NCBI GenBank assembly: GCA_963823765.1
Contig: CAWGML010000002.1
Span: 1,404,709-1,468,708 of the forward strand
DNA length: 64,000 nucleotides
Direction: 5' to 3'
Source: Candidatus Dormiibacterota bacterium
GTDB lineage: Bacteria > Chloroflexota > Dormibacteria > Aeolococcales > Aeolococcaceae
A model generated the notes under the pieces. That model did no database searches. It saw only the letters and a list, made by a program, of their open reading frames with translations, and was not told the DNA's origin. The position numbers and the translations under genes were made by a program. Shown piece after piece: positions 2 through 50,318 of the stretch; position 1 is the stretch's first letter; every line of letters begins with the position of its first letter.

Positions 2-2204
2 ACTGCACTGGCCACCGTCCTGCTCGTCGCCGCGACCTCCGCCACGGTGTACGCCGCGCCGCAGGCCGCAGCGTCCACTGCCGCCGTGGCATCGCACTTC
101 GTCCTCGACGGGATCCACCTGAGCGTCGCAGGTGACGCGGTGCCGGCGGGCACGCCGTTCTCCGTGGCGTCCGCCGGCACCGCCGGCCCCTCCGCGTCGG
201 CGACGACCCACAACCCCTACCGCGAGCTCACCATCAACGCGGTGCCGTTCGCGACGAGCGACGGCGCTGAGCCGGTGATCGGAGTGGCACGAGCGGGCGG
301 CACGGCGTCGATGCGCAGCGCCCTCCAGGCGTTTCGCGCAACGCAACACGCGACCCCTCTCGGCAGCTACGCCGCATCGCTGTTCGGTTCCATGGTCGTG
401 GGCGATGCCAGCCTGCTCAGCCTGCGGCTCGAACTCACCTCAGACCGTGCTGACCGTCGTCGTCGAGTGGGTCACCCAGGCGGGCCCGCGAGCCTGGCTG
501 GTGCGTGCGGCAGCCCAGGTCGGCACGACGTCGGTGGCGGCGACCGCGTCCCGCCTTGCGCACCTCGTGGTCGCCGCCGGCGATGTCTCGACAGCCACGA
601 CCCTCGCTGCAGGACCAGCCTCGAGCGGCACCGGCAGTGGCGCCACCCAGGCGGCGCCGGTCGCCGGGAAGCAGGCGAGTGCGCAGGCGGGTGGCCTCAC
701 CTTTCCATCGTGGTGGAACGGCAACTGCGACACCGCCAACTACGCAGCGGGCGCACAGCAGCAGTGGGGCCGACCGGTGGCGGCATACCCGCTGAGCCCA
801 GGCGCGACATGGTTCGGCCTCGAGGCATGTGGTCCGCGCCCCGGCTACGGTGAGGGGCCCGATGTCGGCGCTCGCTTTCCCGGCTCGAGCTGGGGGGTTC
901 TCGAGTGGGAGTGCGTCGAGCTGAGCATGCGGTACATGGATCTCGCCTGGGGAGTGCACCCGTACCCGGCCAACGGCAAGGACGTCGTCTGGAACTATGC
1001 GAGCACACACAACCAGTTCAACCCGTCGGGCCCAGCGCTCGAGGCGATCTCCAACAACGGCAACGGTCCGCTCCCGCAGGCGGGCGACGTCCTCAGCTAC
1101 GGAGCCACCAGCAGCTTCGGACACACCTCCGTGGTGACCGCTGTCAATGTCAACACCTCAGGCAACGGCAGCGTGACGGTGCTCGAGGAGAATGCGTCGG
1201 CGAGTGGCTGGGCCGCCGTGCCTGTCACCTCGTGGGTCCTCGGCGGCTATGACGGCGGCGTGAGCGGCTGGCTGCACAACCCGGGCTTCCAGCCGGTGCC
1301 GTCGAACGCACGCGCCGCGATGCGCGCCACGGACGGCAGCACGCGCACGTTCTTCGGCCTTGACACGTCGTCGCCGGTCTTCGGCAGCAACTGGTCGTAC
1401 GAGGGCGGTGGTGCACTGGGCGCGCCCGCTGTCGTCTCGGTGCCGACTGCCAGCGACCACGGCTCGCCGTTGTACATCGTCACCGGGCTCGACCACAACG
1501 TGTGGATCCGCAGCGACGCCGCAGACTGGCGCTCGCTGTCGCCGTTTGCCGTGTACTGCACGGGGGCGCCCGGTGCGACAGTGGTGGCGCAGACCCCTGG
1601 ATCCTCGGGCACGTACGTGCTGGTGGTGGCCTGCCGAGGCGCCGACGGCGCGCTCTGGTACGCGCAGACCCCGATATCAACCAACCTGGCGACGCTGCCG
1701 TCCGCCCGCGCCTGGTGGGGCCTGGGTGGCGGCATCACCGACGCGCCTGCCGTCGTGGCCGTGGGGCGTTCGGGCAGCCTGCAGAGCGAGCTCACCTTCC
1801 TCGTCAACGGTGTCGACGGCCGGGTGTGGACCAGGACCGAGGCCTCGCAGTGGACCGCAACGTCGCTGGGTTGCGTCAACGACCTCGCCGCGGCCGCCGT
1901 CCTCACGACCTCGTTGGTGAGCACGTTCGCCTGCGAGGGTCCTGACCACGCGGTGTGGATCACAAGCAACACCGGTGCGGGGTGGAGTCCCCCCATGTCG
2001 TTGGGCAACTGGGTCCTGGACAGCCCCGGGATCGTCCTCAGCCCCACCTCGTTCACCGTGGTGGCTGAGGGCAACGACACGGCCATGTGGGAGACGACCA
2101 GCCCAACCGGCAGCCTCGCGTTCGGTGCCTGGACGTCGGACGGCGGATCGCTGAACGCCGGTGTCTCCGCCACAGCGCTGCTCCCGTCGACCGCCAACCC
2201 CTGA
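2..2204 (+). CDS. Secreted CHAP-domain peptidoglycan hydrolase with C-terminal six-repeat Trp-rich (lectin-like propeller) domain; 5'-partial, +1 frameshift at ~432
   Basis: Frame +2 is open from the window edge with a signal-like TALATVLLVAATSA. Removing one A in GAACTC (431-436) joins it to ORF 405..2204. CHAP motifs are ECVELSMRY, ANGKDV, GDVLSY, GHTSVV and EEN. Confidence 0.75.
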
Positions 2205-2276
2205 CCTCGTCGGGGCAGGCCTCAGGTCGAATCAGAGGACCACACCATCGCAGCGTGGTGCCCTAAGGTGACCGGG

Positions 2277-48721: not shown

Positions 48722-48739
48722 TCCCCGCTGGGGCGGGGA

Positions 48740-50318
48740 TCAGATGTCGCCCCCGGGCTGGTGGACGCCGAAGACATCGCGCAGCGCGTTGCAGACCTCT
48801 CCGACGGTCGCCAGCAGCGCCAGTGCGTCGCGCATGGGCGGGAGGAGGTTGTCATCGCCTTCCGCGGCGCGGCGCACGGCGTCGAGGCTGCGCGTCACCG
48901 CGGGGTTGTCACGGCGCGCCCGCAGCTGCTCCAGCCGCTCCACCTGAGCCGCCTCGAGCTCGGCGCCGATGCGCAGGATCTCCACCTCGCGCTGCGCCAA
49001 CTCCGTGAACCTGTTGACGCCCACGATGACGCGCTCGCCGCTTTCCACAAGCTGCTGGTGGCGGTACGCCGAATCCTGGATCTCGTGCTGGTAGAAGCCC
49101 GCCTCGATGGCGCTGACCGCGCCGCCGCGCTCCTCCACCCGTGCCATCAACGCCCGAGACGCTTCCACCAGGTCGGCCGTGAGCCGTTCGACGAGGTAGG
49201 AGCCGCCCATCGGGTCAGCGACCGCTGCGGCACCCGACTCGAAGGCGATCACCTGCTGCGTGCGCAGTGCGATCTCGGCTGCCTGTTCGGACGGCAGCGC
49301 AAGTGCCTCGTCGTAGCTGTTGGTGTGCAGCGACTGTGTGCCGCCGCAGACGGCGGCCAGCGCCTGGACGGCGACCCGCACCACGTTGTTGATCGGCTGC
49401 TGCGCGGTGAGCGTGGCGCCGCTGGTCTGCGCGTGGAAGCGCAATGCCAGGCTCCGTGGATCGCGCGCGCCGAACCGATCCCGCATCAGCTCGGCCCAGA
49501 TGGCCCGCGCGGCGCGGAACTTGGCAACCTCCTCGAAGAAGTCGTTGCTGACGTTGAAGAAGAAGCTGAGGCGCGGGGCGAAGTCATCCACGGCCAGCCC
49601 CGCGTCGACGGCGGCCTGCACGTAGGCGATGCCGTTGCAGAGCGTGAAGGCCAGCTCCTGTGGCGCCGTCGCCCCAGCCTCGCGGATGTGGTAGCCGCTG
49701 ATGCTGATCGTGTTCCAGCGGGGCAGACGACCCGCGCAGTACGCGAAGGTGTCGGTCACCAGCCGCATCGACGGACGGGGCGGGAAGATGAAGGTGCCGC
49801 GCGCCGCGTACTCCTTGAGGATGTCGTTCTGGATGGTGCCGCCGAGCGTGGCGGCGTCGATCCCCTTCGAACTCGGCGACGAGCTCGTACAGCAGCAGGA
49901 GGAGTGACGCAGGTGCGTTGATGGTCATCGAGGTGGTGACCTCGTCCTGCGGGATGCCCTCCATCAGGGTCGCCATGTCGTCGAGGGAGTCGATGGCCAC
50001 GCCCACCTTGCCCACCTCACCGCGCGCCTTCGGGTCGTCGCTGTCGTAGCCCATCTGGGTGGGCAGGTCGAAGGCGCAGCTCAGACCGGTCTGGCCGGCG
50101 GCGAGCAGGTACCGGAAGCGCTCGTTGGTTTGCGCCGCGCTGCCGAAGCCGGCGTACTGGCGCATCGTCCAGAGCCGCTTGCCATAGCCCTCAGCACGGA
50201 CTCCCCGCGTGAAGGGGAATTCGCCGGGTGGGGGCCACTCCGGCGTGGCCTCGGCGACGTAGAAGGGCTCGAGCGGCAGCCCGCTCTCGGTCCGCGCCTG
50301 CCCTCCCCCCTCGCTCAC
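48740..50318 (-). CDS. Methylmalonyl-CoA mutase substrate-binding (large) subunit; +1 frameshift at ~49870
   Basis: RQYAGFG (Tyr); after correction, [16 protein letters not shown] (Arg); SGYHIREAG. Coupled to mce. Confidence 0.85.

Follow-up and report, generated by a model that had tools for sequence, protein, structure and literature searches.

Motif-linked one-base duplications at GASTC in assemblies of a Dormibacteria genus: an artefact that may report DNA modification

The stretch of DNA analysed here, in the following the window, comprises 64,000 nt (positions 1404709-1468708 of contig C2) of G000, the 2.65 Mb genome of an uncultured soil-type Candidatus Dormiibacterota bacterium with 70% G+C. 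G000 was assembled into 3 contigs, and marker genes put its completeness at 82.6%. The closest named protein homologues of the window share 90-97% identity with it and come from metagenome-assembled genomes (MAGs) labelled Candidatus Dormibacteraeota or Dormibacteria. A search for related loci yielded at most 77% identity among the matches listed. Seven coding sequences in the window are interrupted by +1 frameshifts. At six of them, one surplus base is found within GAACTC, GAGTTC, GACTTC or GAAGTC, in the following the four hexamers, which differ by one inserted base from GASTC (GACTC/GAGTC). The seven sites and one additional position in carA are:

431..436, plus strand: site 1, GAACTC, in which one A:T pair is surplus; a large strain-specific gene is shifted by +1.
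2618..2623, plus strand: site 2, GACTTC (GAAGTC on the other strand), in which one base is surplus; a strain-specific gene at about 2268-4794 is shifted by +1.
10629..10634, minus strand: site 3, GAGTTC on the plus strand, GAACTC on the coding strand; +1 frameshift in the gene of an S-adenosylmethionine (SAM)-methyltransferase-domain protein.
15370..15375, minus strand: site 4, GAACTC on the plus strand, GAGTTC on the coding strand; +1 frameshift in the gene of a GH18-domain protein.
29074..29079, minus strand: site 5, GAGTTC on the plus strand; +1 frameshift in a methylmalonyl-CoA-mutase-family gene at about 28772-30396.
49869..49874, minus strand: site 6, GAACTC on the plus strand; +1 frameshift in a second methylmalonyl-CoA-mutase-family gene at about 48743-50317.
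20230..20231, minus strand: site 7, surplus G:C pair in TCGGCC; +1 frameshift in a pyrK-like gene; adjoins GAATC and is outside the GASTC class.
24773..24777, minus strand: carA site, AACTC (coding strand GAGTT); position 1 of a GACTC site may have undergone a G:C to A:T substitution here.

Frame changes were scored with a 3-periodic second-order Markov coding model, trained on 892 long open reading frames (ORFs) of G000, in a 7-state Viterbi pass. In the window, same-strand +1 switches were obtained at 440, 2619, 20240, 29077 and 49866 and abrupt coding ends at 10623 and 15369. All of them are located within 10 nt of the seven sites proposed in an earlier sequence-only reading of the window, and all eight strings quoted there are found at their coordinates. 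Log-odds over 240 nt on each side reveal a +1 frame change at sites 1, 2, 3, 5, 6 and 7. For site 4 they are uninformative because only five codons follow downstream.

The sequence-only reading had held that the insertions are assembly errors in otherwise intact genes. At sites 3 to 7, this is confirmed by relatives that carry the uninterrupted sequence. These are either protein homologues or G006, a genome of the same genus that could be aligned to window positions 18750-52014 at 84-86% DNA identity. Site 3 is located about 60 codons ahead of the end of the SAM-methyltransferase-domain protein. Here, the homologue P0136 (77% identity) reads '...PAGSWTVFVLSFDVEELRWTAQFLVHA' and links both window frames right at the hexamer. 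As the junction residue, Asp and Glu both fit the homologues. Site 4 lies five codons before the true stop, and the ORF as assembled overruns it by 85 codons. The C-terminus of the homologue P0124 is ...ALLSETANP, and the window minus one base encodes ...LLSESANP followed by the stop codon. At site 5, the closest homologues have QLDSGER. The window reads CGAGTTCGAG and G006 GGAGT-CGAG: the extra T at 29078 is missing from G006, whose ORF is unbroken at the frame change of the window. At site 6, the window reads TTCGAACTCGG and G006 TTCG-ACTCGG, so that the extra A at 49870 is missing from G006 (on the coding strand, GAGTTCG in the window and GAGTCG in G006). The residues Ala-Glu-x-Lys-Gly are kept there in seven of seven orthologue rows shown. 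At site 7, G006 has gcgtcg-ccggg without the extra G at 20231. A third methylmalonyl-CoA-mutase-family paralogue outside the window (C2:1562455-1562865) is also split by a GAACTC/GAGTTC insertion at C2:1562505. This means that all three paralogues of this family in G000 are broken by such an insertion.

The support for sites 1 and 2 comes entirely from coding statistics, since the genus offers no orthologues of their genes: none was found for the site 2 gene in 18 genomes of the genus, and genus protein searches yielded no usable one for the site 1 gene. At site 1, the upstream frame is open to 850 and the downstream frame from 275, and the log-odds go from frame 1 to frame 2. A CHAP domain is encoded in the downstream part of this gene. 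At site 2, frame 2 gives way to frame 0 in the log-odds; instead of a frameshifted gene, a short upstream ORF of its own may be present there. The entire region 1-17,700, which contains four of the seven frameshifts, is strain-specific, and neither G006 nor G008 contains corresponding DNA. CHAP and GH18 domains occur in the very large proteins encoded there.

Motif bias of indels elsewhere in the genome, on which the sequence-only reading depended, was looked for and found. In G000, 744 of 2551 coding-segment 3' ends are located more than 45 nt ahead of an in-frame stop codon. They comprise 287 same-strand +1 switches, 87 same-strand -1 switches, 300 transitions from coding to non-coding and 70 switches to the opposite strand. 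A hexamer was counted when it was at most 12 nt away from the event:

+1 switches (287): GAACTC/GAGTTC 57, GACTTC/GAAGTC 16.
-1 switches (87): GAACTC/GAGTTC 0, GACTTC/GAAGTC 0.
Coding to non-coding (300): GAACTC/GAGTTC 13, GACTTC/GAAGTC 2.
Random coding positions (40015): GAACTC/GAGTTC 409 (1.0%), GACTTC/GAAGTC 404 (1.0%).

As one event carries both hexamer pairs, 72 distinct +1 switches of 287 are accompanied by a hexamer, compared to about 5.8 expected (Fisher p = 9e-53 for GAACTC/GAGTTC and 7e-8 for GACTTC/GAAGTC). In 54 of these 72 events, the centre of the hexamer is at most 6 nt away from the switch. The 64 kb of the window contain 68 copies of the four hexamers, and their presence at six of seven sites corresponds to a binomial p of 4e-10 at 2%. 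This share is above the genome-wide share of about a quarter (p = 0.0015).

The error motif is GASTC, not GANTC. Duplications derived from GAWTC (GAAATC/GATTTC and GAATTC) are present at 0 of the 287 +1 switches, and intact GAATC/GATTC is found at 2 of 287 vs. 1.0% at random positions. Therefore, of the two motifs the sequence-only reading had left open, GASTC stands and GANTC does not. Of the seven +1 insertions that it had assigned to GANTC, the six inside a hexamer belong to the GASTC class, and the seventh, beside GAATC, falls outside it. The one-letter hexamer variants GAACCC, GAACGC, CAACTC, GAACTG and GAAGCC are not enriched at the +1 switches of G000.

The surplus base is the A:T pair at motif position 2, as the sequence-only reading had proposed. 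GAACTC can be derived either from GACTC by an extra A or from GAATC by an extra C. The second origin, GAATC/GATTC with an inserted C or G, was rejected: summed over the 72 sites, GACTC/GAGTC scores about 116 ln units better in the coding model, and at sites 4, 5 and 6 homologues and G006 DNA reveal GAGTC/GACTC as the true sequence. Relative to the coding strand, 34 events are GAACTC or GACTTC and 38 are GAGTTC or GAAGTC. Both orientations are equally common, which argues for an effect at the DNA level and not at the translational level.

The excess amounts to about 67 events at +1 switches and about 9 at coding-to-non-coding ends. This corresponds to about 3% of the 2239 intact coding GASTC sites and to about a quarter of the +1 switches. 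GAACTC/GAGTTC insertions are about 3.5 times commoner than GAAGTC/GACTTC insertions. The affected sites have a pronounced flanking context. At position -1, 84% of them have C, compared to 55% of the intact sites, 16% have G, and none has A or T; T occupies position -2 at 51% (23% at intact sites). A de novo search of the 215 hexamer-free +1 switches for a second error motif yielded just a weak signal from nearby intact GASTC, which is located within 12 nt of 16 of them (7.4% vs. 1.9%). The detector background accounts for about 31 of these 215, so that most of them are probably real insertions in the assembly whose type is not identified. In total, insertions outnumber deletions in G000 about 3:1.

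Other assemblies were used as controls:

G022, same genus, 3 contigs: 400 kb, 13 +1 and 3 -1 switches, hexamer at 3 of 13 +1 switches (p = 2.8e-4).
G006, same genus, 60 contigs, 69% complete: 433 kb, 57 +1 and 32 -1 switches, hexamer at 7 of 57 (p = 3e-4).
G005, same genus, 70 contigs, 91% complete: 346 kb, 4 +1 and 2 -1 switches, hexamer at 0 of 4.
G142, unrelated, 71% G+C, 1.42 Mb contig, no PF01555 hit: 400 kb, 52 +1 and 7 -1 switches, hexamer at 1 of 52.
15 other long-contig loci, unrelated: 322 kb, 15 +1 and 6 -1 switches, hexamer at 0 of 15.

G006 is itself frameshift-rich, and GAACTC is the top 6-mer in its de novo search. G005 is a low-error assembly in which none of six switches has a hexamer, a comparison of low power; judging from G005, the detector yields a background of about 12 +1 and 6 -1 switches per Mb. 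For G142, ORFs of that genome itself served to train the coding model anew. With 130 +1 switches per Mb, it displays the same insertion-dominated spectrum as G000, but its share of hexamer-bearing switches is lower (Fisher test vs. G000 p = 3e-5). The four hexamers are more frequent in G142 than in G000, and hence, its low count is not due to scarce sites. Together with the 15 unrelated loci, this indicates that the signature is tied to the lineage instead of simply accompanying any insertion-rich error profile; the pipelines of the compared assemblies may differ. In the G142 segment analysed (C2:600001-1000000), CCCGGC/GCCGGG is enriched at 12 of 52 +1 switches (3.9-fold), which may be a G/C-run error or a motif of its own.

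Family searches of the whole genome for methyltransferases yielded two PF01555 hits in G000 and none for PF02384, PF02086, PF07669 and PF00145:

Contig C3 226635-227492, plus strand: P0001, 286 aa, PF01555 134.1 bits, DPPF then GSGT.
Contig C3 233460-234212, minus strand: P0002, 251 aa, PF01555 90.9 bits, DPAY then GSGS.

Both score above the PF01555 cut-off of 26.7 bits and have motif IV N-terminal to motif I (FxGxG), i.e. they are beta-class N6/N4 enzymes. The closest solved relatives, both distant, are M.RsrI for P0001 and CcrM for P0002. With the CcrM equivalog model NF050803, P0001 reaches 67.6 bits and P0002 89.4 bits compared to a cut-off of 830; therefore, they are not CcrM. The genes are solitary. 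Among their neighbours are genes for a pterin-binding enzyme, a MaoC-like dehydratase, an S51 peptidase, an alpha/beta hydrolase, a beta-helix protein, an acyl-CoA dehydrogenase and an RsgA GTPase. No nuclease-like neighbour was recognised; two neighbouring ORFs are without a Pfam or NCBIfam family above the cut-off. The AlwI-family nuclease PF09491 had no hit in G000, a weak negative because the same search matched no control genome either. Thus, the solitary CcrM-like enzyme outside Alphaproteobacteria that the sequence-only reading had envisaged is found as far as solitary genes with housekeeping neighbours and Dormibacteraeota-labelled homologues are concerned, but not as CcrM itself. Likewise, its suggestion to search for CcrM-, HinfI- or PleI-like methyltransferases with a linked endonuclease led to two beta-class genes without a nuclease alongside.

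P0001 and P0002 have orthologues with 75-92% identity in all 18 other genomes of the genus (15 of 15 without the unpublished G014, G015 and G021), and the catalytic and SAM-binding motifs are kept in the four published orthologues examined per enzyme. For P0001, the search covered the genus. In a draw of 121 genomes of the phylum in a broad sense, close orthologues of P0002 are confined to this genus and one sister genus, and four other genomes have weak matches only (32-36% identity). The two genes are 6 kb apart in G000 and 3-4 kb in relatives. Between them, G000 has a 363-aa ORF (C3 about 231196-232287, plus strand) with no Pfam/NCBIfam match and a 165-aa ORF (C3 about 229148-229645, plus strand) with one weak Pfam match below the cut-off. 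In view of the shorter spacing in relatives, both look like an insertion in this strain.

Substitutions at the motif were considered as well. At 29 GASTC sites of G006 aligned to the window, the window has the same motif in 11 cases, AACTC in 5 (each Ser to Leu/Phe on the coding strand) and GATTC in 5 (6 in the both-strand count), each synonymous. The change from GAGTC to GAGTT is roughly symmetric (5 of 29 in the window, 4 of 33 in reverse); a C to T change of the middle base is found in 6 of 29 sites in the window and in 0 of 33 in reverse. Due to the small numbers, the many contexts and the error-prone comparator, these data are suggestive, a lead and not a finding. The sequence-only reading had regarded Glu-Leu in place of the usual Glu-Ser in carA as a possible substitution at the same motif. 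Indeed, the sequence is GAGTTG (Glu-Leu) in the window and GAGTCG (Glu-Ser) in G006, one of the five AACTC cases above, but as the reverse direction is nearly as common, the case is only suggestive. Isolated 1-nt coding differences between the window and G006 are located at 25120, 28527-28716, 32652 and 48607, and either genome may be wrong. On the minus strand of the window, 20500-25062, carA (small chain plus GATase) and carB form one open frame of 1520 aa. One open frame of G006 likewise covers carA and the N-terminal part of carB, whose G006 copy is broken further downstream by two extra G's. This single frame over carA and the start of carB suggests that the carA-carB fusion is real in the lineage.

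Codon context was also tried as a test for errors at, or avoidance of, GASTC. The codons GAA, GAT, AAC and TTN are commoner in GASTC-forming contexts, but the test failed its controls: the odds ratios are the same in the low-error assembly G005, and GAA is equally high before CC, CG and TG.

The seven frameshifts are almost certainly an assembly artefact and not real mutations. They would represent consensus errors of a long-read-type assembly, six of the seven belonging to one genome-wide class in which the A:T pair at motif position 2 is duplicated at about 3% of the GASTC sites. The error pattern makes it probable that DNA modification at GASTC causes the artefact. GASTC would be modified, most simply to N6-methyladenine (m6A) on both strands, and the modified base would distort the sequencing signal, so that base calling or polishing would occasionally write it twice. 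According to passages of two reports, errors in nanopore assemblies concentrate at methylated motifs, among them GANTC, and affect just some of the motif copies (PMC12710330, PMC12392509). Modification-driven errors are described as coming from the reads of one strand (PMC11610603). Among the matches listed in a literature search, none had a title or abstract concerned with methylation in the lineage. Likely writers would be one or both of the orphan methyltransferases, because P0001 and P0002 are the only DNA methyltransferase candidates found, have no nuclease alongside and are conserved in the genus. This enzyme assignment may well be correct, with about equal chances either way. Only a tentative suggestion can be made that the genus keeps a vertically inherited orphan beta-class pair methylating the GASTC adenines, possibly one strand each (GAGTC and GACTC).

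Several observations weigh against modification as the cause or against P0001 and P0002 as the writers. About 215 other +1 switches are without the motif. GASTC is only mildly under-represented (observed-to-expected ratio 0.80); passages of a study on CcrM homologues describe depletion of methylated motifs (PMC8919816). The codon bias around GASTC is a general codon-pair effect and not motif-specific. The specificity of P0001 and P0002 cannot be inferred from their sequence, and a REBASE-predicted GASTC enzyme turned out to recognise GAWTC (PMC6700114). In passages of four papers, methylation-linked errors are mainly substitutions (PMC11610603, PMC10687267, PMC12710330, PMC12392509), and two of the papers (PMC10687267, PMC11610603) report modification-mediated errors as mismatches. 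The passages considered contain no insertion or duplication footprint of m6A; supplements, e.g. Table S5 of PMC12710330, could hold indel motifs. In addition, just about 3% of the sites are hit, with T-C-GACTC-G as the favoured context, and a context effect independent of methylation could do the same. Finally, the three signature-bearing assemblies are kin and may share a sequencing or base-calling pipeline unlike that of G142, so that lineage specificity could be pipeline specificity.

The last two points and the predominance of substitutions in the published errors make a pipeline-specific context error a serious rival, even if on balance it is rather doubtful. Here, the base caller or polisher would over-call A in (T)CGACTC(G)-like k-mers, and methyltransferases would be irrelevant. 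A context error of this kind does not agree well with G142, where the same insertion-dominated profile and more hexamers are accompanied by a single hit in 52, or with the 15 unrelated long-contig loci and the unenriched one-letter hexamer variants. Moreover, the duplicated A:T pair occupies exactly the position that is presumably methylated in GANTC/GASTC systems. If modification is nevertheless the cause, it is improbable that it is one other than m6A, such as N4-methylcytosine (m4C), which is written by some members of PF01555, or a modification without a methyl group, or that the family searches missed the enzyme. In favour of this, P0002 has an unusual DPAY in place of DPPY/F, G000 is 82.6% complete, only five methyltransferase families were searched, and the signal of one modified base affects neighbouring calls according to a passage in PMC12392509. 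By contrast, the error concerns the A:T pair on both strands, m4C enzymes usually carry SPPY, and DPPF of P0001 is the canonical adenine-type motif.

It is very improbable that the insertions are real, whether as marks of pseudogenes, as phase variation or as GAACTC sites of programmed +1 ribosomal frameshifting. Nothing beyond the assembled sequence itself speaks for this explanation. It would require about 70 broken genes including the three methylmalonyl-CoA-mutase paralogues, and it is contradicted by the occurrence of the hexamer in both orientations relative to the coding strand, by the uninterrupted sequences of the closest relatives and by the low-error assembly G005 of the same genus that is without such events. 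In addition, completeness is lowered to 82.6% despite an assembly in only 3 contigs.

A six-letter pattern thus locates about a quarter of the apparent +1 frameshifts of G000 and six of the seven in the window, and it does the same in at least two related assemblies. As these frameshifts can be located by the pattern, pseudogene counts, completeness (82.6% in G000) and protein databases that rely on such assemblies are distorted in a correctable manner. Furthermore, motif-linked indels in a finished assembly can point to a candidate modification motif without raw data. If modification is indeed the cause, a poorly known, uncultured lineage would have a conserved orphan GASTC methylation system. 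Should the tentative suggestion of an inherited methyltransferase pair be true as well, this would be a CcrM-like epigenetic mark outside Alphaproteobacteria with a middle-base specificity complementary to the GAWTC variants, readable from assembly errors alone.

Three known phenomena can be compared with the signature. Motif errors of nanopore assemblies, described in passages of the reports cited above for GANTC in agrobacteria and Brucella, for GATC and for restriction-modification motifs, likewise concern a recurrent short motif, survive consensus building and affect a fraction of the motif copies. They, too, are mostly located in coding sequence and mimic broken genes. In contrast to those errors, which are mainly substitutions, the presumed modified adenine is duplicated here, resulting in +1 frameshifts. 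The second comparison concerns the AlwI-family systems PleI and MlyI (GAGTC) and BstNBI (GASTC). According to passages in PMC9799307, such systems target GAGTC or GASTC and use one methyltransferase per strand; G000 shares with them the putative recognition sequence and the presence of two methyltransferase genes. Unlike those genes, P0001 and P0002 are split by housekeeping genes and do not form an operon with a nuclease, the negative for PF09491 being weak.

The third comparison is with the CcrM/M.HinfI group. P0001 and P0002 are about 70-100 aa shorter than CcrM, and their distribution comprises one genus and one sister genus instead of a class, without evidence for a role in the cell cycle. 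The footprint is confined to GASTC, the complement of the published GAWTC variants, and is read from errors. On the other hand, P0001 and P0002 resemble this group in being beta-class enzymes with motif IV before motif I, no recognisable adjoining nuclease and conservation within their lineage. The inferred target would retain the G-A-N-T-C frame with the adenine at position 2, and a shift at the middle base has precedent, since the CcrM homologues described in passages of PMC8919816 differ in exactly this specificity and recognise GANTC, GAWTC or GADTC, the latter two in marine Alphaproteobacteria.

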